Shown one piece after another: positions 1 through 20,830 of a DNA stretch of 64,000 nt (position 1 is the stretch's first letter; each line of letters opens with the position of its first letter). The DNA is taken from contig CAXXKJ010000002.1 of the NCBI GenBank assembly GCA_963675295.2, positions 3,360,001-3,424,000 of the forward strand, in the 5' to 3' direction. The notes beneath the pieces are model-generated. The model ran no database searches. It was not told the origin of the DNA and saw only the letters and a program-made list of their open reading frames with translations. A program made the translations under genes and the position numbers. The stretch comes from a bacterium. Lineage in GTDB: Bacteria > Electryoneota > Electryoneia > Electryoneales > Electryoneaceae.

Positions 1-2113
1 GCGATCCTTCGAAACCCCAGCGGGAAAGCATTAAGCCTGAAATCAACTGAACGAATTCTGGAAGCTCTTTCAAACGAACAATCATTCCAGCGAGTACCAC
101 CTGTGGAATAAGTACTACCGGTACAAGTGCAAGTGCAGAATTTTCTGAGGATGCAAGGGACGATATCATCAATCCAAGTGCAGTTCCTGTGAAGCAGACG
201 GCAAACAGCATCAGGAAATGAGAAAACCATCCACCGGAGAAGTCAAGAACAGGAAAGACAAAAGCTAGGAGAACTCCTACCTGTAGAGCATCAATGACAG
301 CAAGTACCACTAGTTTGGAGAGCAGGTAATTGCTGGTCAGAAGGAAAACACCCCGCTCTCGACGAAAAATTGCTCGTTCCTGTACAATCTCCCTGGCTGC
401 GTTGGACGCTCCCAACCAGATCGCGGCAATGTTCAGCAGGAAGAGAGGTGTCGCAATGGGATAGGGTTGTTCTGCTGAAGAGTGTGTATCATAGAAAACA
501 GCCGCAATAAGAGCGCCTATGATCGGCGCCTGGAGAAGAAGAATTAATGTTTGCAAACGATCGCGAAGCTTGATCTCTCCGTATCTCGCGATAAGATGTG
601 TCAGCTGTGATAATCCGTGAACTGGTCTTGGCTCAGGATTTGTCGGCGATGTCCAGTTCTTACTGTGTTGACGTTTAGCCACGTAACTGTCGTGGAAACT
701 GGATTGCTGATAAGTTTCTGCCCACTGGGTTGCGTTTCGTGTTTGCAACTTTGAAAAGATATCTTCCGGTGAATCAACTTCGAAGTATTCGGCAGCCTTG
801 CTAGCAGGTCCAAAATACGCCAGATACCCGCTTTCAGTAAGCACAACTAACATGTCCAGCATTTCAAAATTACGCTTGGAGATGTTGTGCGTAGTCAGAA
901 AAACCGTTTTTCCGCGGCGGGTCAATGACCTGAGCATAGTCATGACTTCCTTGTCACTCTGCGGATCGAGACCGCTGCAAGGTTCATCAAGAAAAAGCAC
1001 TGATGGCTGGGTGATCAATTCCTGGGCGCTGTTTACACGTTTTCGTTGACCACCCGAAATCCCTTTCTTTACAGGGCTACCTATCTCCGTGTCACGAATT
1101 GCCTCGAGTCCAAGGTCATGGATGACACGGTTTACTTCACGGCGACGCTCATCCACGTTCAGTTCCGGTAACCGCAAAGCGGCATTGTGGTTCAGGGAGG
1201 ATTCCACTGTTAACTCTGGATGGATGATATCATCCTGGGGCACATAACCGATGAATCCACGGAAACGGGCACTTTCCTTGTGTAGGTTGATTGCATTGAT
1301 GTGTACAGAACCGTAAGCTGGGCGAAGATAACCATTCATTGCCATCATCAAGGTGGTCTTTCCGGATCCGCTCGGTCCGATCAACCCAACAAACTCACCT
1401 GGATTCAACACCACTGAAATGTCATACAGAAGTGTCTTCTCGCCACCTCGCACTGGTACTTTCACGGACAGCTTGCTGACCTCGATGCGAGCTTCTCCTT
1501 CAGCAGCTTCCTCTTCAACAATCTCCTTTTGCCTCGGGAATAATACAACCGGGAGGCCTGCAATTAGGACCCGATTGTTTTCATCAATAATGCGTCGAGA
1601 TATACGTTCGCCATCTACAAACGTACCATTGCTACTTCCTAAGTCTTCCAGCCACCATGCGTTTTCCTTTTCGCCCTTGAGCTGGGCGTGATAGCGAGAT
1701 ACACGTGGGTGGGAAATGACAAAATCGTTGTCTGCGGATCGTCCTATAGTGAGTGTGGTTTTCTTTTCTTCTTTGATGATGAACGTCCAGGCACCAGTAA
1801 TTCCGGTGCGATGGCTAGATTCCAAGTCACTGTCAGCCACTTCTGCATCAAGTGGCTGGTTCACCCAATGTGACAGTAGATCGTTTGACCAATCAAGTTC
1901 AACGGATACTGAGATCCGAACAGGATCCCCGATACGTATCTGTTTTCTATTGATTCGTTCCTGCCCGACATATGTACCGTTGGAAGAGTTCAGATCTTCG
2001 AGCCACAAACCATCGAGAGTTTTCGTGATGCGGGCATGGTGGCTTGAAACGTGTGGATCTGTAAGTACCAGATCGTTATCTGAAGAACGTCCAATTGTGA
2101 ACACCTTCTGCAT
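1..2113 (-). CDS. FHA-FHA-ABC ATPase-permease fusion exporter (Rv1747/ABCG-like), truncated by the window edge
   Basis: Absent from the ORF track because it runs off the left end. Segments translated by hand from ATG 2113: two FHA domains (TIGRSSDND..VSSHHA..DLNSSNGTYV; TIGRSADND..VSRYHA..DLGSSNGTF), Walker A GPSGSGKTT, signature ISGGQRKRV, Walker B LFLDEPCSGLD, permease motif WLGASNAAREIVQERAIFRRE. Confidence 0.88.
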   Translation of the reverse strand, partial: MQKVFTIGRSSDNDLVLTDPHVSSHHARITKTLDGLWLEDLNSSNGTYVGQERINRKQIRIGDPVRISVSVELDWSNDLLSHWVNQPLDAEVADSDLESSHRTGITGAWTFIIKEEKKTTLTIGRSADNDFVISHPRVSRYHAQLKGEKENAWWLEDLGSSNGTFVDGERISRRIIDENNRVLIAGLPVVLFPRQKEIVEEEAAEGEARIEVSKLSVKVPVRGGEKTLLYDISVVLNPGEFVGLIGPSGSGKTTLMMAMNGYLRPAYGSVHINAINLHKESARFRGFIGYVPQDDIIHPELTVESSLNHNAALRLPELNVDERRREVNRVIHDLGLEAIRDTEIGSPVKKGISGGQRKRVNSAQELITQPSVLFLDEPCSGLDPQSDKEVMTMLRSLTRRGKTVFLTTHNISKRNFEMLDMLVVLTESGYLAYFGPASKAAEYFEVDSPEDIFSKLQTRNATQWAETYQQSSFHDSYVAKRQHSKNWTSPTNPEPRPVHGLSQLTHLIARYGEIKLRDRLQTLILLLQAPIIGALIAAVFYDTHSSAEQPYPIATPLFLLNIAAIWLGASNAAREIVQERAIFRRERGVFLLTSNYLLSKLVVLAVIDALQVGVLLAFVFPVLDFSGGWFSHFLMLFAVCFTGTALGLMISSLASSENSALALVPVVLIPQVVLAGMIVRLKELPEFVQLISGLMLSRWGFEGS

Positions 2114-2121
2114 GCTGCTCC

Positions 2122-3006
2122 TCAGTAGCGTACGATTTCACCCCTGTCCTCGACGGGAACAGTAATCTTCAATTCACGGAACACAAGGTGTGCGGTACCC
2201 TCCACCCGCCACTCCCAGCCACGGTTTAGCACTCCGGATATGACGGACGAGCCCAGTTTCAACGAACCCACGCGCAGCTTCAGATCAGTATGGATTGGGC
2301 TTAGTGGGACAAGATGCAGCATTTCATGGGAGTGGATTTCACCAGTCATTGAATCGTTAATGAAAAGATCCAGATCCAGTGAATCGACGGTCAGGTCAGC
2401 GTCAAAAGGATTGATAAATCCAATCCTGACCGTCAATTCCTGTTCCTGCACTCCAAGTTTCCGTAGCCCGACCCGTTCTATTTCAATACCAGCTCGATCC
2501 ACTTGTTCACTGGCCCAGTCTCGTACCATCTGCTTAAACGGCAAGATCACGTCGAGCTCAAACTCTTGTTCAAGCTGGCCTATACCAGTACTCAACTCCA
2601 GCTTTACTGGTGCGGTGACGTTTACTGAATCCGCGCCAAGGACTGCCCGTTCCCAAACAGGCAGGTAGCTGTCGCGCAGAACCAGCGGAAGCGTTAAACG
2701 TATCGTATCGCGAGCTGCGATCTCTGTGTAACCAGTCCAGGTTCCTTTGCCGGCGAGTTCACCATCCAACAGCACGTCGTAATAAGCGCGTTCCAACGTA
2801 GCGCCAACACGATTGGGATTGTATAGAGCAATGCTGACCGCAAGAGAGGTTGAATCTTCGCCTATGGCATCTACTTCTACACGTTCGATTCCAGCGAACT
2901 GTGGTGGTTTGATCACACTGCAGGAGATCATTGTGACTGCCAATAAAACCCCTGCGAGGTTTTGAAACATTACTCCATTCTTAGTTGTCACCTCGCGCTG
3001 CTTCAT
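2122..3006 (-). CDS. LEA_2/WHy-domain lipoprotein (two domains)
   Basis: Lipobox-like MISC; two copies of an 'NPN/NPF..L.(L/V)..(Y/L)D(V/L).(L/I)(D/N)' pattern typical of LEA_2. Confidence 0.7.
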   Translation of the reverse strand: MKQREVTTKNGVMFQNLAGVLLAVTMISCSVIKPPQFAGIERVEVDAIGEDSTSLAVSIALYNPNRVGATLERAYYDVLLDGELAGKGTWTGYTEIAARDTIRLTLPLVLRDSYLPVWERAVLGADSVNVTAPVKLELSTGIGQLEQEFELDVILPFKQMVRDWASEQVDRAGIEIERVGLRKLGVQEQELTVRIGFINPFDADLTVDSLDLDLFINDSMTGEIHSHEMLHLVPLSPIHTDLKLRVGSLKLGSSVISGVLNRGWEWRVEGTAHLVFRELKITVPVEDRGEIVRY

Positions 3007-3809
3007 TTGAGACGCTCCAGCGCTTCTTCGGCGGCAGCGTGCCGCTCACGGAAATAAGGATGGCTGGTCAGGTAGCTATCCATCCTTCGTAGAATGGCAT
3101 CAATCTCATCGGTGGGTTCGTCATAGATGCCTTGTTCTTTTTCTATGTCAATCATCTTGTCCATGAATCTCAGCATGCCTTCTGGATCATATCCGGCCTC
3201 GTGCATCAACCGCATGCCTACTGTATCCGCCTCAATTTCCTGGTCCCTGGAAAATGGGTACGTCACAACAGAGTACCCGATTTGCGTCAGCACACCTGCC
3301 TCGATACCCGCAATACGCTCTGCTGCTGCCGCATGCTGAATTCGATGCACACAATGTTTTTGGTCCACATGCGTCATTTCGTGCGCGATCACAGCTGCAA
3401 GTTCATCCTCGTCAAGTTCTAAATCTAACAACCCGGTGTATATCCAGACCCATCCACCGGCCGAAGCAAAAGCGTTGGTAGTGCTGTCCTCCTCAACCAG
3501 TTGAAATGAATAAGGTCGTAATGAACCTCGTTGCAGTACTGCTTCCAGGCGAGAACCAATTGATTGGATACGTCTCTCCCGCTTGCCATGCAGTAGGGTG
3601 AGGTCACTATTGATCTGTTCCGCTATCCGCTCGCCGAGCTCTTTCTCCTCGTCATCTGTCATATTTGTCGCAGGACGGAGCGTCGAGTCAGCAGCTTGGA
3701 CAATTGTCTTCGCAGTGTTAAACAGATCATCTAAGAGTTGGGCTTTTACTGGCTGCATGATCAACAGAATAAGTGCAGCGAAAAACACTACTAATCTAAA
3801 TATCCGCAC
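3003..3809 (-). CDS. M48 family Zn metalloprotease, exported
   Basis: Signal peptide; NAFASAGG, ELAAVIAHEMTH (HExxH), SRDQEIEAD, AGYDP, TSHP motifs. Confidence 0.9.
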   Translation of the reverse strand: MRIFRLVVFFAALILLIMQPVKAQLLDDLFNTAKTIVQAADSTLRPATNMTDDEEKELGERIAEQINSDLTLLHGKRERRIQSIGSRLEAVLQRGSLRPYSFQLVEEDSTTNAFASAGGWVWIYTGLLDLELDEDELAAVIAHEMTHVDQKHCVHRIQHAAAAERIAGIEAGVLTQIGYSVVTYPFSRDQEIEADTVGMRLMHEAGYDPEGMLRFMDKMIDIEKEQGIYDEPTDEIDAILRRMDSYLTSHPYFRERHAAAEEALERLK

Positions 3810-3826
3810 TTCGACCTCCAGTTAAA

Positions 3827-5155
3827 CTATTGTTGTGAACAAAAACCGATTATTATACTTATAAAAGTAAATAGTAAAATTATTACAAATATTGCCGTTG
3901 CTCTACCATCAATATCCTTTTCCCTATCAACATTAAGATGGTCTCGTGCTGGAGGAAACTTCAAACTTACTGAGTGATTTAGATATTCTTTTGCTAATTC
4001 TCTTTCTTCTTGCGCCTCAAGTAGTCTTCCATACAAATAGGATGCCTGTTGTCCTCGTACTTTCAATAGCTTATGCACACCATTCATTATTTCCTTTTCA
4101 CTCTTATCTAGTAGCTGGCGACAAGGTTCTATAACATATTCTTTACTGAAATATTGTCTGTATTCTCCATTTTCCATTTCATCCACTAGTTCTCTTAGTC
4201 TTAACTGTACGGCATTTTCATATTCCTTTTGTTGACTCTCAAGAAGTGGTTCGGGCAGGTTACTACCTGAAAAACTGCTTTCATGAGCCGCTTCCTGGTA
4301 CGAAATAGTTTCTGATAAATCAGTGTCACTCAACAACTTGAAAAGTACGTCACAGTTTTGAATCCGTTGATCCAAATCGCGGGCTAGTGCATGATGGAGA
4401 ATCTCGACCAAAGATTCCGGGATATACGGATAAAACTCCCGTGGGTCAGGGATTGGATCTTCGAGGCAGGATTTCATGAACACAAACTCAGAGGTCTCGT
4501 CCTCATCGAAAGGCGCCCGTCCAGCGAGCATCACGTAAAGTGTCATACCGAGCGCGTAGATGTCAGCCCGATGATCGACCTGCTTACCGAGAATTTGTTC
4601 GGGTGCCATGTAAACTGGTGTGCCGAGGATGGTTCCTGTGCGCGTCAGCTTTGACTGGCCAGCTACCTTTGCGATCCCGAAATCGGTGACCTTAACAACG
4701 TTGTCCGTGGTGACGAGGACATTGGACGGCTTCAGATCACGATGCACCACGCCCTTGGCGTGTGCGTAATTGACTGCCTGCAGAAGCTGATTAAAAAGTC
4801 GGAGCGCTCGTTCGTGGGGGATCGGACCAACCTCTCGTCCGATCATTTGCTCGAGGTTACGACCCTCGACGTACTCCATAACCAACGCGATACCACCTTC
4901 AAACTGAATGAAATCGTGCACTTGGACGATATTCGGGTGGGTAAGTCTGGCCATGGTTTTGGCTTCACGAGCCATTCGTTCGCGCAACTCTGCAGCTCGC
5001 GCCGGCTGGTCAACCATAACTTTGAGGGCTGTCGGACGATCCAGCACCTCATGCTCAGCCAGATAGACCACACCCATTCCACCCCGTCCCAATTCTCGAA
5101 TTACTTTATAATTCGGAATGATCGGTAGCGGTATCTTGACTGCTTGTTTATCCAT
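3827..5155 (-). CDS. Ser/Thr protein kinase with TPR/Sel1-like helical tail and C-terminal TM helix
   Basis: GRGGMG, ALK, HRDLKPSN, DFG, YMAPE; hydrophobic C-terminus. Confidence 0.92.
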   Translation of the reverse strand: MDKQAVKIPLPIIPNYKVIRELGRGGMGVVYLAEHEVLDRPTALKVMVDQPARAAELRERMAREAKTMARLTHPNIVQVHDFIQFEGGIALVMEYVEGRNLEQMIGREVGPIPHERALRLFNQLLQAVNYAHAKGVVHRDLKPSNVLVTTDNVVKVTDFGIAKVAGQSKLTRTGTILGTPVYMAPEQILGKQVDHRADIYALGMTLYVMLAGRAPFDEDETSEFVFMKSCLEDPIPDPREFYPYIPESLVEILHHALARDLDQRIQNCDVLFKLLSDTDLSETISYQEAAHESSFSGSNLPEPLLESQQKEYENAVQLRLRELVDEMENGEYRQYFSKEYVIEPCRQLLDKSEKEIMNGVHKLLKVRGQQASYLYGRLLEAQEERELAKEYLNHSVSLKFPPARDHLNVDREKDIDGRATAIFVIILLFTFISIIIGFCSQQ

Positions 5156-5174
5156 CTATGTTACTCTGCATGAG

Positions 5175-6758
5175 TCAATCCAGTTTGGATTTACGTATAA
5201 GCCTAAAACCAACGTAAGGAAAATGAAAGCCTGGATAGAATTTTATTCTTGCCGCTGGCGAACATATTGCATGCCCATGCATATATGACCCTCCTCTCAC
5301 AGCCTTCACTCTGGATTTATCAGATCTAGCTTTCTTATCATCACCTTCTATCAATAGTTCATACCTCTTGTACCAATTATCACACCATTCCGCTACATTA
5401 CCTAACATATCATAAAGGCCCCATGGGTTAGGCTTTTTTGTACCAACATTATGTATTTTATTATCGCTGTTTGATTCATACCATGCATATAGATCCAATT
5501 TATCTTCTCTATCACCCCACCAATATCTTTGGTGATCTTTAGAAGCACGACATGCATACTCCCACTGAATTTCAGTTGGCAATGAATAGTAATATTCATC
5601 ATCTTCTAAATTAAGTTTATTTATAAAATCAATAATATCAAACCAAGTCACTTTTACAACAGGATAATCCTCATGATATATCTGTTCCTTATTTTTAGAA
5701 TTAAATGAATACCACATTTTATTAGTAACCAGTGTATTCATAATTTCAAATGCTGATACATAGGTTTCGTGACGAGGTTTTTCTGATTCTAAAGCATATT
5801 GATCTTCATCTGAGGAACCCATCATAAATTTTCCACCAGGTAGTGTAACGAAATTCATGTTCTCTAGTGGGCCCTCTTTCGTCACAAACCTATTATTACT
5901 GCTTACAGATATCAGATTATTCTTTTTTTCGGTTCTATCAATAATATTTACTAGATTATCACAGCTTTCGATCCTTGTTTCTATATTCCTATCTATTGTA
6001 GAGTAAATAATATCGACCATACGTTGAGGTATGTGCGGATAAAACTCTCTTGGATCGCGTATTGGATCCTCAAGACATGATTTCATTATCAGAAACTCGG
6101 ACGTTTCCTCATCATCGAATGGGGGTCTTCCAGCCAGCATCACATACAAAGTCATCCCCAACGCATAAATATCAGCCCGGTGATCGACCTCTTTCGCAAG
6201 AATCTGTTCTGGTGCCATGTAGATAGGCGAGCCAAGAACGGTTCCGGTTCGAGTCAGTTTTGAATCACCTACGGCTTTAGCAATACCGAAATCCGTCACC
6301 TTCACCCGGCCATCCTTGGCAACGAGGATGTTCGCCGGCTTAAGGTCCCTGTGTACTATGCCTTTCTCATGGGCGGCACCCACTGCACCAAGAATCTGCC
6401 TGAAAAGAGGCAACGCACGTTCATGGGGAATTGGGCCAACCTCTCGGCCAATCATCTCCTCCAGGGTACGGCCTTCCACGTATTCCATCACCAAGGCAAC
6501 ATTTTTACCATGATCGACTAGGTCAAAGATCCGAACGATGTTTTCGTGGTCGAGTGTCGCCATGACCCGTGCTTCGCGAAGAAAACGTTCGCGAATGGTC
6601 GCATCCCTCGCATACTGCTCGAGCATGAACTTGATGGCGACCTTACGCTGCAAAACCTCGTGTTCTGCCAGGTACACCACACCCATACCACCCCGACCGA
6701 TTTCCCTGATCAGGCGGTAATTCGGGATCACTGGGTACTGTCCATCAACCTCTATCAC
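5175..6758 (-). CDS. Ser/Thr protein kinase fused to FGE-sulfatase (SUMF1, C-type lectin fold) domain
   Basis: Kinase motifs, then FMMGS, LPTEIQWEYACRA, KPNPWGLYDMLGNVAEW, RGGS, GFRL. Confidence 0.92.
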   Translation of the reverse strand: MIEVDGQYPVIPNYRLIREIGRGGMGVVYLAEHEVLQRKVAIKFMLEQYARDATIRERFLREARVMATLDHENIVRIFDLVDHGKNVALVMEYVEGRTLEEMIGREVGPIPHERALPLFRQILGAVGAAHEKGIVHRDLKPANILVAKDGRVKVTDFGIAKAVGDSKLTRTGTVLGSPIYMAPEQILAKEVDHRADIYALGMTLYVMLAGRPPFDDEETSEFLIMKSCLEDPIRDPREFYPHIPQRMVDIIYSTIDRNIETRIESCDNLVNIIDRTEKKNNLISVSSNNRFVTKEGPLENMNFVTLPGGKFMMGSSDEDQYALESEKPRHETYVSAFEIMNTLVTNKMWYSFNSKNKEQIYHEDYPVVKVTWFDIIDFINKLNLEDDEYYYSLPTEIQWEYACRASKDHQRYWWGDREDKLDLYAWYESNSDNKIHNVGTKKPNPWGLYDMLGNVAEWCDNWYKRYELLIEGDDKKARSDKSRVKAVRGGSYMHGHAICSPAARIKFYPGFHFPYVGFRLIRKSKLD

Positions 6759-6838
6759 TCTTACTCACTTTCAAACGGTTTCAGGAAACTCAAATACCGA
6801 GACAACGTTTGATGCTGAAGGATATAGGGCAAACGTTG

Positions 6839-8179: not shown

Positions 8180-8253
8180 TTCAGATTCCTTTAGTATCCA
8201 TCCATCAAAGATTCAGCTGACCCGTCTTTGCTTACGTGGGTGAAAGCTATGGA

Positions 8254-11013
8254 TCAACGGTTCATTGGCACTCGAACGAGTCGAAATCCCAAGTAGAATT
8301 TCTTTTCTGAAGGATCCTCAAATCGACGACTCGCTGATCGACAAGAACTTGCCATAAATGCCCAATACCCACCGCGTGTAGATCGATATTTGCCACTGAT
8401 GGATCCACGTGGATTCGATACCGGGCTTGATTTGTAGTATTGATCGCTGTAGTAGTCCTGGCACCATTCTTGAACGTTTCCATGCATGTCGTACAACCCC
8501 CATTTGTTGGGAAGTTTGCTCGCTATTGCATGTGTAGTGCCTTGGCTATTGCTGTTATACCATGCATATGCAGGTAACCTGGAATAATCTAGGTCATCGC
8601 CCCAGCTGAAGCGGCTTCCATCTTCTCCAGCCCGGCAAGCATACTCCCATTCCGCCTCTGTCGGTAGGCGATAGGTATAGCTTGGATCATATTTGTTGAG
8701 TTCTTGAATGAATTCCTGAACATCATACCATGATACTTTTTCTACAGGCAGTCTATTTCCTTTGAAATGAGATGGATTATTCCTCATTAGAGTAGCCCAC
8801 GTTTCTTGTGTGACTTCTGTGGACATAATTTCAAATGATGAAACATGCACTTGATGTCGAGGATATTCATCGTATTTTGAATCCTTTTCATTGGCTAATG
8901 CTCCCATCGTGAAGTTTCCTTCGGGAATCTGGATAAAGGTTATTCCTAGCTTGGGCATACGTATTTTTGATGGAACACGAATTTCTTCTGGTAAATTTCG
9001 TTCTGTCTTATCCTCGTGTTTCGACGTGAGGTCCGCAGTTTTGGATTCGATCGAAACACGAGCAACCCGGAATCCCCATAGTACTGCGCTAAAGCTGGGA
9101 TAACTTGCGTATCGAACACTAGGTGAACATGCCTCTCTCGTACTTGTCCAATTCCCACCCCTTACAACTCTATATAGACCATTCAGAGGACCACTTGGAT
9201 CAATCTCATTACCTTTGGAATAATAATCTACGTCATACCAGTCATGGACCCACTCCCCAACATTTCCATGCATATCATATAGACCCCACGGATTAGAGGG
9301 TTTTATTGAAACAGCGTGTGTACCTATTGAATTACTATTATCGTAATACCATTCATAGTAGCTTAAATCATTTCCTGCTGCGTCGTTTCCCCACCAGAAT
9401 ATGGATTCTGCATTACCAGTTCTGCACGCATATTCCCATTCAGCCTCAGTAGGAAGACGATAATGCATCTGCGGATCACGAATATTGAGCCAGTCGATAA
9501 ATGCTATTACATCATTCCAGCTTACACAGACGACTGGGTATTGATCGGATTGAAGAAATCCTGGATGATTCCAATTCACTTCTGAATCGATTGCCCATTC
9601 TGTGCCATTCCATGCATAGGAACCAGAATTCTTCTCAGCGTCAGTATCATAACCAGTTGCATCAACAAACTCACCGAATTGGGATACTGTTACTTCTGTC
9701 GACATTAGCTCAAAGGCTGAGACTGTTACCTTATGACGCGGATACGAATCTCTTTTTAGCCCAGTCTCAATGGGCAATGCACCCATTATGTAGCTACCAG
9801 CTGGGATCTGAACGAAAGTCATACCAGCAATTGGTCCTCGCGAACTGGAATCAGTTTCTAGTTCAATTGATTTATCATTGTCTTCGTTTATTATTTCTCT
9901 AGAATTAATATCACTGCTTAGATTGCCATTATAGTTGTGTATAACCATAATTATAAAAAACACTCCAATTATTGCAATAATGAAAAGAAATGTCTTGACT
10001 CTTTTTTCCGATTCTTGCTGAGATTCGATTTCCTTTTTCCTTTGATTCTCTTCTAGCTGTCGAACTTTTTCTTGCCTGCGTTTTTCCTCTTCCTCATACT
10101 GTTTTTTCGAATGTTCCATCTGTTTCTCGTACTCTTCCTGTTCCCTCCTCTCTTCTTCAGCAGCCTCCATTTCCACTTGGTTGGTAAGACGATCTATTTC
10201 CTTAAGCTCATCTACACTTTTTAGAGATACTTTAAATGAAGCACAGTCTAGAAGACGTTTTTTCAAATCTCGCTCAAGGGCAGAGAATACTACTTTCACA
10301 ACTGGTTCAGGGATATATGGGTAATATTCTCGTGGGTCCGGGATTGTATCCTCAAGACATGCCTTCATAAATGCGAATTCAGAAGTTTCTTCTTCGTTAA
10401 ATGGTGTCCAGCCTGCCAGCATGACGTATAGCGTCATTCCCAGGGAATAGATGTCTGTCTGGTGATTAATCGGTTTCCCAAGAATCTGCTCAGGCGCCAT
10501 GTAGAGCGGTGTGCCTAACATTGTACCAGTTTTAGTCAGTTTCGACTGGCCTGCGGCTTTGGCGATACCAAAATCCGTAACCTTGACGATATTATCTTTC
10601 GATACCAGGATGTTTGATGGTTTCAGATCTCGATGAATCACTCCCTTGTCATGGGCAAAACCCACAGCAGCCAAGATTTGTTCGAATAGTGGCAGGGCTC
10701 TTTCATAGGGGATCGGTCCCATCTCGCGCCCGATCATCTGTTCCAGAGTCCGGCCTTCTACATATTCCATTACGAGAGCCGAACCACCTTCAAACTGGAT
10801 GTAATCGTGGATCTTTACGATGTTCGGATGGTCAAGCTGGGCAAGGGTTTGAGCCTCACGCTCCATTCGATAGCGTAAGTCAGTATTTCGAGTGTAGAGA
10901 TCGAGCATCACCTTTAGAGCATACCGACGTTTCAGCACCTCATGCTCTGCAAGGTAAACGATTCCCATTCCACCGCGACCTAACTCTTCTAAGATCTTGT
11001 AGCCAGGTACCAA
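8254..11013 (-). CDS. Ser/Thr protein kinase - coiled coil - TM - two FGE-sulfatase domains
   Basis: Kinase motifs; E/K/Q-rich coil; TM FLFIIAIIGVFFIIMVI; two LPTEAEWEYACR / WGLYDMHGNV.EW / GFR sets; GGAGGG upstream of the TTG start. Confidence 0.92.
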   Translation of the reverse strand: MVPGYKILEELGRGGMGIVYLAEHEVLKRRYALKVMLDLYTRNTDLRYRMEREAQTLAQLDHPNIVKIHDYIQFEGGSALVMEYVEGRTLEQMIGREMGPIPYERALPLFEQILAAVGFAHDKGVIHRDLKPSNILVSKDNIVKVTDFGIAKAAGQSKLTKTGTMLGTPLYMAPEQILGKPINHQTDIYSLGMTLYVMLAGWTPFNEEETSEFAFMKACLEDTIPDPREYYPYIPEPVVKVVFSALERDLKKRLLDCASFKVSLKSVDELKEIDRLTNQVEMEAAEEERREQEEYEKQMEHSKKQYEEEEKRRQEKVRQLEENQRKKEIESQQESEKRVKTFLFIIAIIGVFFIIMVIHNYNGNLSSDINSREIINEDNDKSIELETDSSSRGPIAGMTFVQIPAGSYIMGALPIETGLKRDSYPRHKVTVSAFELMSTEVTVSQFGEFVDATGYDTDAEKNSGSYAWNGTEWAIDSEVNWNHPGFLQSDQYPVVCVSWNDVIAFIDWLNIRDPQMHYRLPTEAEWEYACRTGNAESIFWWGNDAAGNDLSYYEWYYDNSNSIGTHAVSIKPSNPWGLYDMHGNVGEWVHDWYDVDYYSKGNEIDPSGPLNGLYRVVRGGNWTSTREACSPSVRYASYPSFSAVLWGFRVARVSIESKTADLTSKHEDKTERNLPEEIRVPSKIRMPKLGITFIQIPEGNFTMGALANEKDSKYDEYPRHQVHVSSFEIMSTEVTQETWATLMRNNPSHFKGNRLPVEKVSWYDVQEFIQELNKYDPSYTYRLPTEAEWEYACRAGEDGSRFSWGDDLDYSRLPAYAWYNSNSQGTTHAIASKLPNKWGLYDMHGNVQEWCQDYYSDQYYKSSPVSNPRGSISGKYRSTRGGYWAFMASSCRSASRRFEDPSEKKFYLGFRLVRVPMNR

Positions 11014-11077
11014 GTATCCAGACCCTCCAATTGATTGGACAAATCTATACTCAAGTTATTTCAAAGTTGCACAAGCT

Positions 11078-12187
11078 CTACCATAGAGATAAGAAAAAAA
11101 CGGGGACAGCGAACATTGCAATAATCGATACTACTATTGCTATTGCTAAAACAAGAGAAGTAAAGCTTTCACCAGAAGATGATTTCTCAAGCACGACATC
11201 GTATTCCTCACTTAAACCATGTTTTACATCTGACTTATTTTCAATCGATCCATAAGACGTGGTAATATATTCATTATCTTTATTTTCATTATTTATATCA
11301 TTTTTATTTAATATACTAACATTATACTCTTCATTCATTATAATATTATCATTCTTTTGCGTCTGGTATATTGCATAAATTATATCTATACATTTATTAT
11401 ATCTTAGCTTTATCGATCTTTCAAGTGCTTTATTGATTGCATGAATAAGATGATCCGGGATGTATGGATAAAACGTCCTTGGATCGGGAATCTCATCTTC
11501 CATGCAGGATTTCAATAGTACAAACTCCGATGTTTCATCTTCATCAAACGGCGCGCGTCCAGCCAGCATCACGTACAACGTCATTCCCAAGGCATAAATG
11601 TCCGCTCTGTGGTCCACAGCTTTACCGAGGATCTGTTCCGGCGCCATGTAAATGGGTGTTCCGAGGACAGTCCCTGTGCGCGTAAGCTTGGATGCTCCCG
11701 CCGCCTTGGCAATTCCGAAGTCCGTCACCTTGATCCGATTGTCTTTCGTGACCAGCACATTCGCTGGCTTCAGGTCACGGTGAATGATGCCTTGCTCATG
11801 CGCATACCCAACCGCATCCAACAATTGACGAAACAGGGGCAATGCCCGTTCGTGCGGAATTGGACCAACCTCGCGCCCAATCATTTGCTCGAGGCTGCGA
11901 CCATCAACGTACTCCATCACGAACGCGACATCATCCTCACGCTCAATCAGGTCGTGCACCTTGACTATGTTGGGATGATCCATTGTTGCCATCATGCGGG
12001 CTTCACGCAGAAATCTCTCGCGTACCGCTTCATCGCGGGCATGCTGTTCAAGAATAACTTTGATGGCTACTTGCCGATGTAGTCCCTTGTGATTTCCAAG
12101 GTAGACCACACCCATCCCGCCACGACCAATTTCTCGTTCGACCGTGTAGTTGGCAAACTCAGGTAGTCTTGTCGATGCAGGACTCAT
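11078..12187 (-). CDS. Ser/Thr protein kinase with C-terminal TM anchor
   Basis: Kinase motifs; N-rich linker; hydrophobic C-terminus. Confidence 0.92.
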   Translation of the reverse strand: MSPASTRLPEFANYTVEREIGRGGMGVVYLGNHKGLHRQVAIKVILEQHARDEAVRERFLREARMMATMDHPNIVKVHDLIEREDDVAFVMEYVDGRSLEQMIGREVGPIPHERALPLFRQLLDAVGYAHEQGIIHRDLKPANVLVTKDNRIKVTDFGIAKAAGASKLTRTGTVLGTPIYMAPEQILGKAVDHRADIYALGMTLYVMLAGRAPFDEDETSEFVLLKSCMEDEIPDPRTFYPYIPDHLIHAINKALERSIKLRYNKCIDIIYAIYQTQKNDNIIMNEEYNVSILNKNDINNENKDNEYITTSYGSIENKSDVKHGLSEEYDVVLEKSSSGESFTSLVLAIAIVVSIIAMFAVPVFFLSLW

Positions 12188-13323
12188 TCTTCAGACACGC
12201 TCTCTCTTCCGGGCTCAGATTCGGAGATTAAAGATGAACGACCAGAGTCTACTATGGTAACGCTCACTGCAATTAATGGTGGATGGAACATGGTATCTTT
12301 AGGAAATGCTTGGTCAATACTCTGTCGCGGATCGATTTCTTCAACAGTCAGGTCATGGGTGGGTTGCGAAAAAAAGGATCTGAGGAATTTCCCGGGAACT
12401 GTGTTAAGTAAAAGTAATGCTGCGACTACTGCCGCCAGGAGAATGATCACGGTACCGCCGTATAAAGCCACCCTGGGCAAGTGTTTGACTGGGGGTACAT
12501 CTATTTGTCGCGTTTGACGGTCTGCTCCATCCGATCGGAGCAAAGGTTTTCGTGGCTTCGGACCAATATGGCAGTCAACAATTTGCACGGTGGCGTTGTC
12601 GTCTCCACTTCGCTCATTCGCAAGTTTTACCAATCTTTCAGCCAGCACCTGAGGTGTTTGATCGATAGATTGCTGTTCCATATCGATTGCAGGAATTGGA
12701 CCAGAGATCCCATCCGTACACAGGATGAAGCGGTCGCCTTTGCAAACATCTACAGTTTCAATCTCGGGTTCAATTTCCTCGCGTACACCCAACGCCCGGG
12801 TAATCACATTTTTCTGTGGATGGTCTTCTGCTTCCTTCTCTGTGATCAATCCCCGGCGTTGCATCTCGCTAACCATGGAATGATCCTGGGTCAGCTGTTC
12901 GATATGATCCAATCGAATTCGATATAGCCGGCTGTCGCCAATGTGTACACGCCAGGCGGTGGGCTTTTTTGTTGTACTTACGAGGAGCAGGACACACGTT
13001 GTGCCCATTCCTTCCAGTTCGGAGTTCTGATCAATTTCCTGTCGGATAGCGCGGTTCGCACTTGCAAGTGCCCGCTTCAGTACTTTGGGGGCGTTCCTAT
13101 CGACAGATTCCGTGACAACTTTGGCAATTGTCTCCACGGCCAGTCGGCTGGCACGTTTACCACCAACATGCCCACCCATGCCATCACATACGATGAAAAG
13201 TGAACCCAATTCCGTTTCAAAAAAGCCATAGTAGTCTTCATTTTCGCTACGAACGGTCCCCACATCGGTAAAATTCCCGAACTCAATCGGCGACCGTTTA
13301 CCGAACGTTAGCAGCGGGATCAT
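12184..13323 (-). CDS. PP2C-family (PrpC/Stp1-like) Ser/Thr phosphatase with TM helix
   Basis: RSENED, VCDGMGGH, GMGTT, HIGDSRLY, NVITRALG, LCTDG, DDNAT. Confidence 0.93.
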   Translation of the reverse strand: MIPLLTFGKRSPIEFGNFTDVGTVRSENEDYYGFFETELGSLFIVCDGMGGHVGGKRASRLAVETIAKVVTESVDRNAPKVLKRALASANRAIRQEIDQNSELEGMGTTCVLLLVSTTKKPTAWRVHIGDSRLYRIRLDHIEQLTQDHSMVSEMQRRGLITEKEAEDHPQKNVITRALGVREEIEPEIETVDVCKGDRFILCTDGISGPIPAIDMEQQSIDQTPQVLAERLVKLANERSGDDNATVQIVDCHIGPKPRKPLLRSDGADRQTRQIDVPPVKHLPRVALYGGTVIILLAAVVAALLLLNTVPGKFLRSFFSQPTHDLTVEEIDPRQSIDQAFPKDTMFHPPLIAVSVTIVDSGRSSLISESEPGRESVSEE

Positions 13324-14924
13324 TCTTGCACCCCTTGGAACTGAAGTTCACAGCGTCCCATCTGAATGCGGTCACCATTGTTCAGCAGGACGGTATGAAT
13401 TTGTTCTCCGTTCACTCTTGTGCCGTTTGTAGAATCGTTGTCTGTCAGTTGGAACTGCCCACCGACAAATCGCAGTGTAGCGTGATGTCCAGAAACCGTC
13501 GGTTCCTCAAGCACAATGCGATTGTCGTCCGCAGCCCCGATCGTCACTTCCGCAGCGGTCACATCAAACTCAGATCCCGCCTGCGAGCCGCTGCTGATGA
13601 GAAAGCTTCCACTTTTATATACCTGTAAGGCCGGTTGGCCAATGATCGTTTTCCGTGACATCGATTGCGCGGGAGCCTGACCTGCAACCGAAGTGTGAGA
13701 TGGGATTCCCGTGTCGCGGCTTGATCCTGCTTCAACTTGATCGGACTCGGGAACAGGTTCAGCTTTCAACTTGGCAGCTTCCGCTTCCTGCTGTTTTCGT
13801 TTTTCTTCCAGCCGATGCTCCTCTTCCTGGCGTCGGCGCTCTTCTTCAAGCAATCTTTGTTCTTCTTCCCGGCGTTTCGCCCGATTCCGGGAGCTGACTA
13901 GAGCAATGACTACAACGACAATAACCACAACAGCACCGCCAGCGGCGACAGGAATGAAGGGGAATTCAGAATCGCTCCTTCCTCCGTGTCCGTCATCCGC
14001 TGTCACACGCGTTGAAACTGCCATGGATAGTACTGTCTGACCTGCAAAATTGCCCCGACTGGCAGCAATTGTGTAGCTGTGGGACCGGCCATCTGCCAAC
14101 TCGGACGGCGGATTGAAGGATAGCAAATATTGGCTCTTCAGGTAATCCAGCGAAAGTACAAACTGTTCGCTAAGATCTTCGGATTCACGCGCGCGGTGAT
14201 ATTGTCCATTTGTACGGTCACTCATCGCCTCCAGATTCCGCAAGAATCGTTCATCGATGTTTGTAAATCCTACCGTAAAAATCGGAACATCATTTTCGTT
14301 CGCTTTTTCAATGCAATTATCCAGGGAGTAAGCATTCGCCATACTTTCGTTCTTTCCATCTGAAAGCACCAGAACTAGCCGTCGATCAGGAATTCCTGTG
14401 CTTTCATCAAGGAAGGTGAGACTTCGGTAAACTCCATAAAACAACTCTGTGGTCGCACCTCTGGCCTGGATGGTCCCCGTTCGCTCTTTCAAATACGAAC
14501 GGTTCATGGAAAAGTCGGATACGATTTCCACCTCATCGCCAAAGGTGATAATGGCTACCCGGTCCTGGGGACGTAGCTGATCGATGTATTCATTCACTGC
14601 TTCTTTAGCATCTGCCATTGGATCTCCGGACATGGACAGAGATGCATCAAGGCAAAGGACAACCGCTACACCCTGGTCGGACTCATAGAAGGACTGCACG
14701 CGCGGTGAAATCGATGAATACCCTTCCGGGATCACATTGAAATGTGTCGAATCCAATCCCAGCACTCCCTCTCGGTTCGCATCGAGGACCGTTACCGCAG
14801 CAATCACAGCCGAGGTATGGGTTGAATCGATCTCGTCCAGTCTGACAGTCCAAGGCTCGACCGCGTTGGCAGTAGTAGCTAGGAACAGGATCATCATGAT
14901 CATCGCAAGATGATTGCTTTTCAT
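13320..14924 (-). CDS. Signal peptide - VWA - TM - coiled coil - FHA protein
   Basis: MIDAS DASLS and LSDG; TM VVVIVVVVIALV; FHA VSGHHA..DNDSTNGTRVNG. Confidence 0.88.
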   Translation of the reverse strand: MKSNHLAMIMMILFLATTANAVEPWTVRLDEIDSTHTSAVIAAVTVLDANREGVLGLDSTHFNVIPEGYSSISPRVQSFYESDQGVAVVLCLDASLSMSGDPMADAKEAVNEYIDQLRPQDRVAIITFGDEVEIVSDFSMNRSYLKERTGTIQARGATTELFYGVYRSLTFLDESTGIPDRRLVLVLSDGKNESMANAYSLDNCIEKANENDVPIFTVGFTNIDERFLRNLEAMSDRTNGQYHRARESEDLSEQFVLSLDYLKSQYLLSFNPPSELADGRSHSYTIAASRGNFAGQTVLSMAVSTRVTADDGHGGRSDSEFPFIPVAAGGAVVVIVVVVIALVSSRNRAKRREEEQRLLEEERRRQEEEHRLEEKRKQQEAEAAKLKAEPVPESDQVEAGSSRDTGIPSHTSVAGQAPAQSMSRKTIIGQPALQVYKSGSFLISSGSQAGSEFDVTAAEVTIGAADDNRIVLEEPTVSGHHATLRFVGGQFQLTDNDSTNGTRVNGEQIHTVLLNNGDRIQMGRCELQFQGVQE

Positions 14925-15550
14925 GACGCCTCCACTGTGTCGATAAGACGTAATTTCAAGTGTGTCCGGCCGATCAAGATGTTGTCGCCGTCTTGCAACA
15001 CACGTGGGACATCTCCTACGTCTTCACCATTTACAAACGTACCGTTTGTCGAGAAGTTGTCACGCAGTTTTAAGACACCTCCTCGGTACAACAATTCAGC
15101 ATGAAAGCCCGAGACCATACCGTCTGGCAGCTGGATTTCCACGTCATTACCACTGCCGATACGAGTTTTCCCAACATGTAGCCGGTAGTCTTGGCCATTC
15201 GGATTCCAGTCAAAGCTCACCAACCAGCCGATCAACTTTCCTTGAACGCCCGCCTTCGCAGCACCGCGTTGTTCCTCGGAAGCACCTGCAGGTTCTGGTT
15301 CGAGAATAACCGTCTTTCTGGCACCACCACTACCACCAGGTCTTGCTGTCTTCTCGACCGGCGCATCGAGCACGGTCTTTCGCTGCCCCGTTGGTTTATC
15401 GGCTTGTGGCCCCTTTGACTTGTCGGGTGTGTGCTTCACCGGTTTATCAAGAACCGTTTTGGCGGACGGATCGGTTTTAGGACAAAACGGGCATTCATCA
15501 AGATCTGCACGGTATCGATGTCCGTTCGGGCAAACTTTTGTTGCTTCCAT
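14921..15550 (-). CDS. Zn-ribbon + FHA domain protein
   Basis: CPNGH..CPFC; GWLV motif; VSGFHA..DNFSTNGTFVNG. Confidence 0.85.
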   Translation of the reverse strand: MEATKVCPNGHRYRADLDECPFCPKTDPSAKTVLDKPVKHTPDKSKGPQADKPTGQRKTVLDAPVEKTARPGGSGGARKTVILEPEPAGASEEQRGAAKAGVQGKLIGWLVSFDWNPNGQDYRLHVGKTRIGSGNDVEIQLPDGMVSGFHAELLYRGGVLKLRDNFSTNGTFVNGEDVGDVPRVLQDGDNILIGRTHLKLRLIDTVEAS

Positions 15551-15568
15551 CAGCCAGCCACCCTTGCT

Positions 15569-16966
15569 TTAAGTTTTAAACTCTTTACCGTAGGTGTTAC
15601 GTACACGCTTTGATTTCTTGAAATATAACCACCAAATAGTAAAATATATGATTGCATGAAAAATTGATTTTATAGTCTCAAACTGATATTCATGAAAAAT
15701 ATTACTTGATCCTGATGTTATTATTAAAGTAAGTAAATCACTACTGACCCATAATATTAAATTTCCCTTTAAAAAGGTACGTGCAGTAGATCTGCCAGTT
15801 TGTTTTCCCCTCCAAACAATAATTCCTGTAAAGAATCCCCAAATATTCAATATTAACGTGGATAATATATCTATTGACATAACGATATCTAATAGAGGGT
15901 CGATGTCAAACAAATCACCGTAGATAGAAATTGACCATAACGTTGCAATTGGAGTTAAAATTGTTAATGAAACACAAAAGAGTAGCAACCAACCACCCAC
16001 ACCGCGAGGATTGTTATCTTCTTCAATTGATGAATTTTCGGTAGTATCGTTAGTTAAGGAATCCACTTCAGGTGGTCTATTCATTTGACTCGAATCGTGA
16101 TGATCTGATTCATATCGAGTAGATGGACGCACGAAATCAACCTGACCGTTTAGAAAACTCTTGAATTGACTAGAAGAGGCAAACCGTAGTCCCGGATCCT
16201 TTTCCGTTGCCAATCGAATCGCATCGACTACTTGGTCGGGAATGTGAGGGTAATACTCTCTTGGATCAGGTAGATCGTGCTTCACGATCCAATCCATGAT
16301 CTTGTATTCGCTGGAAGTTGTCGCGTCGAACGGCACGCGACCGGTAACCATCTCGTATAGGGTTATCCCGAGCGAATAAATGTCGCTCCGTTCTGTCGCC
16401 TCAATTCCTTTCACCTGCTCCGGCGACATGTACCAAAGTGTTCCAAGCTTGGTCCCGGTCCGGGTCAGCCCTTGCTGCCCGATGATTTTTGCGATGCCCA
16501 GGTCGGTAACCTTTACAACGTCACTAGGTGTGACAATGGCATTGGAAGGCTTTATGTCTCGGTGAATTATACCGCGGGAATGTAGGTAATCGAAGGCGTC
16601 AAGAAGCTGGAAAAAGATCGGCAGGGCACGTTCGGATACAATCGGTCCAACTTCGCGACCGATAATTTGATCGAGGCTGCGCCCCTCGATGAATTCCATC
16701 ACCAGCGCAAGACGATCTTCCGTTTCGATGTAATCAAGGAGTGTGACGATGTTGGGATGACTGAGTGAGGCTTGTAGTCGGGCTTCGCGGGAAAAGCGTT
16801 CCCGCAATTGAGGATCTCGACTGTGATGTTCGTGGAGGATTTTTACTGCGACGGTCCGATCAAGCCGAGTGTCAGTCGCTCTCCAGACAACTCCCATCCC
16901 GCCTTCGCCGATGATCTCATGTAACTCATAGTGCAGCAAGCGCACCGCAACCTCCCTGGCATCCAC
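15569..16966 (-). CDS. Ser/Thr protein kinase with multi-TM DUF2569-like C-terminal domain
   Basis: GEGGMG, HRDIKPSN, DLG, YMSPE; tail GVGGWLLLF...WWLYFKKSKRVRNTY. Confidence 0.88.
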   Translation of the reverse strand: MDAREVAVRLLHYELHEIIGEGGMGVVWRATDTRLDRTVAVKILHEHHSRDPQLRERFSREARLQASLSHPNIVTLLDYIETEDRLALVMEFIEGRSLDQIIGREVGPIVSERALPIFFQLLDAFDYLHSRGIIHRDIKPSNAIVTPSDVVKVTDLGIAKIIGQQGLTRTGTKLGTLWYMSPEQVKGIEATERSDIYSLGITLYEMVTGRVPFDATTSSEYKIMDWIVKHDLPDPREYYPHIPDQVVDAIRLATEKDPGLRFASSSQFKSFLNGQVDFVRPSTRYESDHHDSSQMNRPPEVDSLTNDTTENSSIEEDNNPRGVGGWLLLFCVSLTILTPIATLWSISIYGDLFDIDPLLDIVMSIDILSTLILNIWGFFTGIIVWRGKQTGRSTARTFLKGNLILWVSSDLLTLIITSGSSNIFHEYQFETIKSIFHAIIYFTIWWLYFKKSKRVRNTYGKEFKT

Positions 16967-17414
16967 CGCGCACCTGAAATATTGTATCTGAACATCATGA
17001 TGCTAGTTATTAGAACAATGTATAAGTCCTGTTTTAAAATCCCCTTGTAGATAGATCGAGGTCAAAAGATGCGAACAAGGTAAGGCTTACGGTTGAGGAG
17101 TGTCAAACTCTTGTAGAGTAGTAGAAAACTAGAATCTCGATGATTCTTCGAGAATGTCAGTTCTCCGATATCCAAAAATCATTAAATAATGCATCTATTC
17201 CAGTTGAGCTCATTCTAGTTCAGACACCGATGAGGTTTATGCAGCGAACGAATACAATAACTTACCTTGCCTCATATAATCTGCGCTGCGGTCAAACAAC
17301 CTCCATACCCCACTATCGGATAGTCTGAATGGGTCCCTTTCGGTTTGTCGAGCACCTACTGACACGAGTAACGACCCTTGGTCGCTCAAACCAAGGGTTA
17401 TTAGTGATTCCAAT

Positions 17415-17435
17415 GGCACACTCACGGCACACTCA
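17415..17435. repeat. Tandem 10-bp direct repeat GGCACACTCA x2, candidate integrase arm-binding site
   Basis: ggcacactca-c-ggcacactca, about 110 bp from the tRNA fragment. Confidence 0.45.
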
Positions 17436-17542
17436 GGGCAACAAACAGCAACAAATCCCAAACAACCAAAGCGATTCACTTTGCAGAAACCATTGAATCC
17501 ATTACTGTTATGAATTGTGGCTTGTTGTGAATTTGGCCTTTA

Positions 17543-17589
17543 TGGGACTTTTAAGCCCAAGGCCGTGGGTTCGAGTCCCACCATCCTCA
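17543..17589 (+). pseudogene. 3' half of tRNA-Lys(UUU), probable att site
   Basis: tggga-CTTTTAA-gccca anticodon arm, gtggg-TTCGAGT-cccac T arm, acceptor 3' strand catcctc-a; no matching 5' strand or D arm upstream. Confidence 0.78.
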
Positions 17590-17596
17590 CAAGGAT

Positions 17597-20767: not shown

Positions 20768-20830
20768 GCTGTTTTCCTCCCTGACTGAAACGCGCCGGCA
20801 GTCCGGCGCGGGGGTGGTTAATCGTTGTGT

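Follow-up and report, generated by a model that had tools for sequence, protein, structure and literature searches.

At the left end of a 64-kb stretch of DNA (the window; contig CAXXKJ010000002.1, positions 3,360,001 to 3,424,000 of the forward strand, assembly GCA_963675295.2, Electryoneaceae), twelve genes code for what is probably a horizontally transferred accessory system of Ser/Thr phospho-signalling at the membrane, serving phospho-gated export and envelope remodelling. Confidence in this reading of the sequence is somewhat better than even. The source genome, designated here as G000, is 4.8 Mb long. The conserved core of the system consists of a Zn-ribbon-FHA protein, a VWA-FHA protein with a transmembrane (TM) helix between the two domains, a PP2C phosphatase with a TM helix, one or more Hanks kinases, a secreted M48 protease, a lipoprotein of the LEA_2 family, and an exporter of FHA-FHA-ABCG type. 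Judged from sequence comparison, the modules are known but their combination is new, with a widespread FHA/vWA/PP2C/kinase cassette joined to an FHA-gated exporter that resembles Rv1747. What stands out are the array of six kinases, the complete insulation in the host genome, and the carriage on a defence island. The gated exporter is preferred because the transporter has the Rv1747 build and lies beside kinase genes, because FHA domains occur in the cluster only, and because the parts are predicted at the envelope.

According to Pfam and the list of open reading frames (ORFs), the twelve ORFs form one unbroken co-directional run on the minus strand at positions 1-16966 of the window. A preliminary description of this DNA, made from the letters and the ORF list, had given domains and positions for all twelve genes, and they matched exactly. 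In order of transcription, the first gene codes for Hanks kinase K1 (15569-16966; Pkinase 188 bits) fused to a polytopic DUF2569 domain (43.9 bits). It is followed by Zn-FHA, composed of a Zn-ribbon, a linker, and an FHA domain (14921-15550; Pfam FHA 61 bits), and by VWA-FHA (13320-14924; Pfam VWA and FHA), with a predicted signal peptide, an extracytoplasmic VWA domain, a TM helix at residues 326-344, a charged coiled coil, and a cytoplasmic FHA domain. The PP2C phosphatase (12184-13323) has a C-terminal TM helix at residues 291-309 and was recognized by NCBIfam model Stp1_PP2C_phos with 243.3 bits (cut-off 230). Five more Hanks kinases come next. K2 (11078-12187; 369 amino acids (aa); Pkinase 201 bits) has a short tail of low complexity with a C-terminal TM anchor at residues 345-363. 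K3 (8254-11013; 919 aa; 182 bits) is of receptor type, with a coiled coil, a TM helix at residues 341-359, and two FGE-sulfatase domains (351 bits over two stretches). K4 (6839-8179; 446 aa; 188 bits) and K6 (3827-5155; 442 aa; 194 bits) have helical tails and C-terminal TM anchors at residues 426-444 and 421-439, respectively, while K5 (5175-6758; 527 aa; 196 bits), lying between them, has an FGE-sulfatase domain (154 bits) and no TM helix. The run is completed by a predicted secreted M48 zinc metalloprotease (3003-3809; Peptidase_M48 99.8 bits), a two-domain LEA_2 (WHy) lipoprotein (2122-3006; LEA_2 46 bits, and another, weak LEA_2 match in the C-terminal half), and the FHA-FHA-ABCG-type exporter (2-2113; Pfam FHA twice, ABC_tran, and ABC2_membrane). 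The full exporter product has 767 aa, of which the N-terminal 704 are encoded inside the window; the gene continues for 190 nt beyond the left edge of the window and ends at L002:18810 (labels L001 and L002 refer to the DNA left of the window). ATGA overlaps of 4 bp link Zn-FHA to VWA-FHA, VWA-FHA to PP2C, PP2C to K2, and M48 to LEA_2, and the remaining intergenic gaps are 8-80 nt. By a simple hydropathy scan and alignments, which are the basis of all topology given here, a signal peptide, a lipobox, a TM helix, or membership in a membrane transporter is present in every component except Zn-FHA and K5. Four DNA sequencing runs, all from one study, and no RNA run were found. The sequence was identical in two of them, with a 30-kb piece free of differences in the first and low-depth fragments in the second, and no strain variation was seen.

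The cluster had been called self-contained, and the counts agree with this. Seven Hanks kinases were found in G000 by a hidden Markov model (HMM) of the six kinase domains applied to ORFs of at least 200 aa, and Pfam gave an equal count; six of the seven are coded in the cluster. All four Pfam FHA matches of the genome and its one PP2C_2 match are there as well. In the two relatives described below, G037 and G043, the FHA matches of the whole genome (five out of five and four out of four, respectively) likewise all fall on the contigs of the cluster. With the FHA domains of the three genomes all in the cluster, FHA-dependent signalling of the kinases can end nowhere else.

In a word-based search of 5.8 billion proteins, six VWA-FHA relatives of the same build were found, with identity from 76% down to 42%. 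An exhaustive HMM search gave 1464 representatives at E<=1e-30, more than 100 of them full-length with about 500-550 aa, and of these only two are close (>850 bits). Protein-atlas leads for FHA/VWA clusters, to be taken as leads only, go to Myxococcota, Spirochaetota, Acidobacteriota, Pseudomonadota, Bacteroidota, and Chloroflexota. The counts and the leads together indicate that the VWA-TM-FHA build is widespread and that this lineage of it is rare. Full-length VWA-FHA is present in three out of 79 species genomes of the phylum, i.e., G000, G037 (same family, other genus), and G043 (other family), while no full-length match was found in the three genomes of the genus of G000, and two further genomes of the phylum gave VWA-only partial matches at E<=1e-20. 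In a plasmid collection, two partial matches and no relative covering at least 80% of VWA-FHA were found. From a metagenome scan, a single weak locus (L006) was obtained and left aside.

The G037 locus encodes kinase-DUF975, Zn-FHA, VWA-FHA, PP2C, kinase-FGE-sulfatase, M48, LEA_2, FHA-FHA-ABC (its gene is split across two contigs), a small lipocalin-like protein, and a further kinase. From the contig start, the G043 locus encodes Zn-FHA, VWA-FHA, PP2C, kinase-Sel1, a kinase, a Zn-ribbon-CD225 protein, a DUF2752 protein, M48, and LEA_2, followed by a coiled-coil protein, an OmpA-like protein, a Zn-ribbon-DUF2569 protein, FHA-FHA-ABC, and another kinase-Sel1. Thus, the order FHA, VWA-FHA, PP2C, M48, LEA_2, FHA-FHA-ABC is kept in both relatives, as the preliminary description had expected of a real system. 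Its expectation of a variable kinase complement was borne out too: the slot between PP2C and M48 holds five kinases in G000, one in G037, and two in G043, and the tails in the relatives are FGE-sulfatase, Sel1, or none. The additional G043 genes, coding for Zn-ribbon-CD225 (IFITM-like), DUF2752, and Zn-ribbon-DUF2569 proteins, are located at L004:6411-7238 and L004:11384-11947. DUF2569 is fused to K1 in G000 and free in G043, which marks it as a membrane domain that recurs in the system. Six co-directional ORFs of 1298, 370, 478, 219, 663, and 277 aa (L003:11-7639 and L014:16089-19985) lie immediately upstream of the G037 cluster, and none of them had a Pfam, PADLOC, or PHROG match. The sample contigs of G037 and G043 have G+C content of 0.37-0.42, and their clusters 0.41-0.44; with cluster and host so similar, the cluster looks resident in these two genomes and foreign in G000.

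Over the first 300 residues, K2-K6 are mutually 56-70% identical and 45-47% identical to K1, and catalytic motifs are intact in all six. The three motif sets noticed earlier (IGRE(V/M)GPI..ERAL, LT(R/K)TGT.LG, and SE(F/Y)......D...DPR.(F/Y)YP(Y/H)IP) are indeed present in every cluster kinase and none of them in the seventh Hanks kinase of G000. In six kinases of the related loci they are only partial, with GRE.GP in two, LT[RK]TG in two, and DPR..YP.IP in three. A maximum-likelihood tree was computed from 13 kinase domains (the six of the G000 cluster, another six of the relatives, and the seventh kinase of G000). In this tree K2-K6 are one clade with support 98/100, which indicates a lineage-specific expansion. 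K1 is sister to the upstream kinase-DUF975 of G037 (100/100) despite the different membrane tails, DUF2569 and DUF975, and the kinases located after the exporter in G037 and G043 pair up (86/87). The G037 FGE kinase and the outgroup have long branches, and their placement is unsure.

The tails of the six kinases had been described as different. They do vary, but K3 and K5 both carry FGE-sulfatase domains, 37-40% identical, and the second one in K3 shares 54% identity with the FGE domain of the kinase in the G037 slot. A C-terminal FGS architecture is listed for the 'Proteo1' kinase family in a preprint (bioRxiv 10.1101/2025.01.12.632604); K3, K5, and the G037 slot kinase are of this build, here within a tandem array of paralogues with other tails. 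According to hydropathy, both FGE-sulfatase domains of K3 are predicted outside the cytoplasm, behind the TM helix, K2, K4, and K6 end at a single TM helix with nothing beyond it and no ectodomain, and no hydrophobic segment was detected in K5. The term 'multi-receptor' used for the array therefore fits in part: K3, and perhaps K1 with its polytopic DUF2569, could sense outside the cell, but K2, K4, and K6 appear to be tail-anchored with cytoplasmic tails, and K5 soluble. By prediction, an extracytoplasmic sensor domain is present in one kinase only. The K4 and K6 tails have no BLASTP similarity to each other. Both gave sub-threshold TPR_8 matches only, at the same relative place, and protein-atlas leads to TPR proteins at 0.82. 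Single-sequence AlphaFold2 models are all-helical for the K6 tail (pLDDT 70) and helical with low confidence for the K4 tail (pLDDT 51), and the K6 model had no PDB fold match at E<=0.001 in Foldseek. A common TPR-like fold of these two tails may be taken as a lead only. The G+C content of kinase-domain DNA is 0.49-0.52 and that of tail DNA 0.29-0.36 in K1, K2, K4, K5, and K6; K3 is the exception, with 0.46 and 0.42, respectively. The low values of the tails fit a separate history of tails or fast-evolving low-complexity sequence.

A diversity-generating retroelement acting on the FGE domains was considered and rejected, as blastn found no template-like repeat of the K3 and K5 genes elsewhere in the genome; the matches were to paralogous kinase domains and to conserved motifs of 48-74 bp. 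The sole RVT_1 match of the genome is a 321-aa frame at G000:C2:3515028-3515576, outside the window, about 140 kb off and unlinked to the FGE kinases. All six kinases match the PADLOC model PD-T4-6 with 283-302 bits, over the kinase domain only (residues ~10-290), and they also match the PADLOC models of mad6, MkoA, and PglW kinases. A match that is confined to this domain and shared with other kinase models indicates a Hanks kinase domain and nothing more specific.

The reading proteins are less uniform than had been assumed. Among three orthologues of Zn-FHA, the Zn-ribbon residues C7/H11/C20/C23 are invariant, and in the linker, which otherwise varies, T32, T59, and K79-T80-V81-I82 are invariant too. 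T32, T59, and T80 are putative sites of phosphorylation or docking. Among solved structures, Zn-FHA is matched best by the FHA domain of Rv1747 (6cah, E 1.4e-10). When aligned to 6cah and FhaA, Zn-FHA has Ser in place of the arginine of the Gly-Arg pair and Gly in place of the arginine after the conserved Ser, and the FHA domain of VWA-FHA has Gly-Ala and Ser-Gly at the corresponding positions. Gly-Arg is lost from both proteins in G000 and G037, where an arginine stands a few residues away instead, and it is retained in both G043 orthologues. In the exporter, FHA2 has Gly-Arg and Ser-Arg, and FHA1 has Gly-Arg and Ser-Ser. The earlier view that FHA domains read phosphothreonine (pThr) in this cluster thus fits the exporter domains, which are of canonical type, but less well Zn-FHA and VWA-FHA, in which the Gly-Arg arginine is missing. 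The metal-binding MIDAS residues of the VWA domain, DxSx(S/T), T159, and D189, are kept in all six aligned proteins, and the signal peptide is kept in the aligned relatives.

A similar pair is ArnA/ArnB of Sulfolobus acidocaldarius, a zinc-finger-FHA protein beside a vWA protein, which is controlled by Hanks-type kinases and a phosphatase, and in which ArnA retains the canonical pThr-binding residues (PMC7472852 and PMC6509490). ArnB is cytoplasmic and regulates archaellum genes. The Zn-FHA gene adjoins the vWA gene in all three loci, with the 4-bp overlap in G000. Here, in contrast, the vWA protein has a signal peptide and a TM helix and is predicted as extracytoplasmic, and Zn-FHA is without the Gly-Arg arginine except in G043. 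Membership in the ArnA/ArnB-like systems was rejected on account of the predicted location of the vWA protein. A TolQ-like/TPH-vWA motor cassette (PMC12204202) was also rejected, with no MotA, ExbB, or TolQ domain in the twelve genes or the two related loci.

The exporter has intact Walker A, signature, and Walker B motifs and at least five predicted TM segments. It is 50-54% identical to the G043 and G037 orthologues, and the G043 copy of 766 aa has the domains in identical order. Its best solved relatives are ABCG2, CDR1, and ABCG25, with ABCA1 also near, and these nearest solved transporters carry lipids, sterols, and xenobiotics. In architecture, it resembles Rv1747, with two N-terminal FHA domains, a nucleotide-binding domain, and an ABC-2 membrane domain in one polypeptide, beside Hanks kinase genes; this build was found in G000 and G043, and kinases adjacent to the exporter in all three loci. 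Rv1747 is reported to be positively regulated via phosphorylation of its linker threonines by PknF, the kinase coded beside it, with the marks read by the FHA domains of Rv1747 itself (PMC3138270 and PMC8339232). The present system differs from Rv1747/PknF in having six kinases, a PP2C phosphatase, two more FHA proteins, a VWA ectodomain, M48, and LEA_2, and in its diderm FCB host and mobile island. The HExxH residues H143-E144-xx-H147 of M48 are invariant and its N-terminus is a signal-like helix, while scores with the NCBIfam models of BepA and LoiP are far under the cut-offs. The lipobox Cys of LEA_2 is conserved in three out of three full-length orthologues.

Taken as phospho-gated export, the system might work in the following way. 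The kinases would be fixed to the inner membrane, some through tail anchors and others through a TM helix or the polytopic domain, and would be activated via their differing tails or via VWA-TM-FHA, the MIDAS VWA head of which would face the periplasm. Activated kinases would phosphorylate linker threonines of the FHA proteins and the exporter. The two canonical-type FHA domains of the exporter could then read the marks and switch or cluster the transporter, as for Rv1747/PknF in Mycobacterium, and PP2C would reset the system. Exporter, periplasmic M48, and lipoprotein might jointly alter the envelope by export or trimming of lipid, glycolipid, or protein. The K2-K6 array arose in this lineage by tandem duplication and subsequent replacement of tails, which would give several inputs to one output. 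Convergence of the kinases on an exporter/protease output, as well as any role in defence or recognition, is suggested by gene order and neighbours only.

Some observations weigh against this proposal. The linker threonine of the exporter ('KKT') is retained in only two of the three orthologues. With the Gly-Arg arginine absent from Zn-FHA and VWA-FHA of G000 and G037, the reading of pThr presumed here may partly follow a non-canonical mode or not depend on phosphorylation. Synteny rests on three loci of one phylum, two of them on cut contigs. Finally, scans found 34 promoter sites (29.0±4.4 in shuffles) and 16 terminator sites (14.6±4.2 in shuffles), and with results no better than in shuffled sequence a single transcript is not supported.

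The earlier description of the locus as mobile agrees with its surroundings. Over roughly the first 17 kb of the window the G+C content is 0.42-0.51, and further on it is 0.54-0.63, with a genome mean of 0.577-0.588. The low-G+C stretch goes on for about 33 kb past the left edge of the window, with a tRNA-Lys(TTT) gene at its left end (L001:4647-4720). The 3' end of this tRNA (L001:4678-4720) recurs as an exact copy of 43 bp, attR, at 17548-17590 on the plus strand of the window. This repeat at both ends delimits an element of 50.9 kb, with G+C content of about 0.42-0.52, inserted in tRNA-Lys(TTT), with a tyrosine integrase at the tRNA side and the phospho-cluster at the far end. The cluster therefore belongs to an island far larger than the 17 kb described before.

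From the tRNA side, the island encodes the tyrosine integrase, a DUF3987 primase/helicase-like protein, a complete type I restriction-modification (R-M) set into which a T5orf172-CSD gene is inserted, a DUF4238 protein (DUF4238-Pers match), a DpdF-like helicase, a 540-aa protein, DrmD, MerR and a VWA protein, McrC and an McrB-like protein, and the phospho-cluster. The DUF559/DEAD DpdF-like helicase gene (L002:146-4952) is apparently split by an IS30-like transposase gene (L002:1808-2800) into an N-terminal part (L002:2901-4952) and a Helicase_C part (L002:146-1804). DrmD is a full-length match with 830 bits, adjoined by the 540-aa protein, which has no Pfam, PADLOC, or PHROG match (L002:5105-9776); no further DISARM genes were recognized in the island. 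A MerR-family regulator gene overlaps the start of a gene for a 709-aa VWA protein on the plus strand (L002:9920-12764), which is unrelated to the VWA gene of the cluster. Genes of McrC (L002:14120-15490) and the 1087-aa McrB-like protein (L002:15487-18750) are on the same strand as the cluster, 59 nt downstream of the exporter gene. In the McrB-like protein, AAA_5 was found at residues 821-929 only, and its long N-terminal region has no assigned domain. McrBC was rejected as a core part, as the exporter gene is followed by kinase genes or a small lipocalin-like gene in G043 and G037.

An arm of 136 bp beside attR (17406-17541) has a second copy inside the island at L002:12959-13093, with 112 out of 129 aligned bases identical (86.8%). 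No tRNA fragment follows the internal copy, but a decayed IS481-like transposase gene does. A 19-base motif of the arm is also present just inside attL, at L001:4772-4790. These repeats suggest two related elements integrated in tandem, with McrBC and the phospho-cluster as the distal ~23.5 kb, without an integrase. Directly outside the island, at 17711-22284 of the window, are genes with the G+C content of the host for a 1018-aa protein with a weak C-terminal sorting signal of the type IX secretion system and for a PorV-like outer-membrane protein, which place the host in a group using type IX secretion.

The content of the island suggests a role of the system in immunity against phages or other invaders. 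The diversified kinase tails, with FGE-sulfatase/C-type-lectin fold, TPR/Sel1-like helices, or membrane domains, would each detect another invader cue or a breach of the envelope, and exporter and protease, triggered by phosphorylation, would remodel the surface or shut the cell down. This role is rather unlikely, yet it has the best standing among the alternatives. The island is composite and carries type I R-M, DrmD, DpdF-like helicase, DUF4238-Pers, T5orf172-CSD, and McrBC genes; the cluster has a patchy distribution in the phylum and genus; and the putative sensors underwent lineage-specific expansion and swapping of tails. KKP kinase-phosphatase modules on mobile elements are reported as anti-phage (PMC11341870), FGS domains are described as invader-binding modules of conflict systems (PMC7159879), and TerY-P, consisting of a TerY-like vWA protein, PP2C, and a kinase with a C-terminal zinc ribbon or OB fold, is reported as an anti-phage module that stands alone or is linked to McrBC-type CoCoNuT (PMC11090510). 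On the other hand, when PADLOC was run, as the preliminary description had proposed, it gave domain-level matches for kinases, PP2C, and ATPase and no system-level defence match; Zn-FHA, VWA-FHA, M48, and LEA_2 had no match at all. PADLOC contains TerY-P models, and VWA-FHA matches no PADLOC family. Furthermore, the cluster has the G+C content of its host in G037 and G043, with visible neighbours free of defence or phage family matches; the cluster lacks a nuclease, a pore-former, an NADase, and any other usual effector; and the FGE domains are without a linked diversity-generating retroelement.

TerY-P is a defence system of similar composition, with a vWA protein, PP2C recognized above the Stp1_PP2C_phos cut-off, and Hanks kinase(s) in one operon near restriction-type systems including McrBC. 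Unlike in TerY-P, the vWA protein of the cluster is exported, membrane-anchored, and FHA-fused, FHA proteins and an exporter are added, and the kinase tails are DUF2569, FGE-sulfatase, helical with TM, or short with TM, never a zinc ribbon or OB fold. McrBC is not kept beside the cluster in G037 or G043 either. Membership in TerY-P was rejected, as the vWA protein is exported and FHA-fused and no kinase has a zinc-ribbon or OB-fold tail.

A more elaborate form of the defence proposal is a modular, transferable 'receptor-kinase immune locus', in which a fixed pThr core of FHA scaffolds, PP2C for reset, FHA-gated exporter, protease, and lipoprotein would gain further kinase sensors as genes duplicate in tandem and capture tails, and the output would be an undescribed defence by envelope remodelling or export. 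Its diversification could be likened to that of receptor-kinase arrays of plants and animals, and its own writers, readers, and eraser would form an insulated network in a host otherwise nearly without one. This is unlikely too and is offered as a speculation.

Less probable still is surveillance of envelope stress like that of TagQRST-PpkA-Fha1-PppA, a close functional analogue. The VWA head, lipoprotein, and protease would sense damage of the outer layers and the kinases would pass the signal to FHA proteins, with the exporter, not type VI secretion, as output. The parts are parallel (kinase, periplasmic VWA, PP2C, FHA protein, ABC-type inner-membrane complex, and lipoprotein), and the components except Zn-FHA and K5 are predicted at the envelope. 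The Pseudomonas aeruginosa parts PpkA, PppA, Fha1, and TagQRST act together at the envelope (PMC7817224), and the set is reported to sense membrane damage (PMC7817224 and PMC13713981). In the cluster, however, none of the twelve genes is of type VI, VWA is carried by an FHA protein rather than by a kinase, and the kinases are many where that pathway has one. The TagH/VI_FHA model of NCBIfam (TIGR03354) scored 45.5 and 39.9 bits, far under the cut-off of 120.25. TagTS is of Lol-like ABC type, whereas the ABC protein of the cluster is of ABCG/ABC2 type and itself carries FHA domains. Membership in the type VI threonine-phosphorylation pathway was rejected for the lack of type VI genes, the place of VWA, and the low VI_FHA score. 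A housekeeping pathway would not be expected in just three out of 79 genomes or on an island. Phospho-gated export, defence, and response to envelope damage overlap as readings and are not mutually exclusive.

ABC2/ABCG-type exporters commonly move lipids, glycans, and xenobiotics. A module for export of a secreted product (peptide, lipid, or polysaccharide) and self-protection, serving competition or decoration of the surface and regulated by the kinases in an ordinary way, would agree with the relationship of the exporter to ABCG2, CDR1, and ABCA1, with a secreted M48 that could process a product, and with the OmpA-like, coiled-coil, and small membrane proteins added in G043, but it is very improbable, with neither a biosynthetic gene nor a precursor-like ORF at the three loci, signalling proteins taking up to half of the coding capacity, and matches to class III/IV lanthionine synthetases that cover the kinase domain only and are far under the cut-offs.

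The preliminary description did not recognize a described system in this cluster. This holds for the combination, as a full-text search (few subscription journals, without supplements) found no paper on FHA, vWA, PP2C, and kinases together with M48, LEA_2, and FHA-ABC, but not for its modules, since an FHA-gated ABC exporter is of a described kind and so is the FHA/vWA/PP2C/kinase cassette. A vWA/kinase/FHA/PP2C operon is described for Deinococcus in a 2026 preprint (10.64898/2026.01.23.701218), and the cassette itself is thus already known.

By its gene content, the cluster is a complete Ser/Thr phospho-network, with six writers, four reader domains, one eraser, and one gated output, that moved as one block into a genome nearly free of pThr signalling. 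Outside the cluster, G000 has a single Hanks kinase and neither an FHA nor a PP2C_2 domain, and it would be a clean system for the study of network insulation and of growth of a kinase repertoire. The Rv1747 principle of FHA-gated ABC export would be extended beyond Actinobacteria and linked to the widespread FHA/vWA/PP2C/kinase cassettes. Should the defence role prove true, the cluster would add an envelope-level, kinase-sensed mechanism to bacterial immunity.

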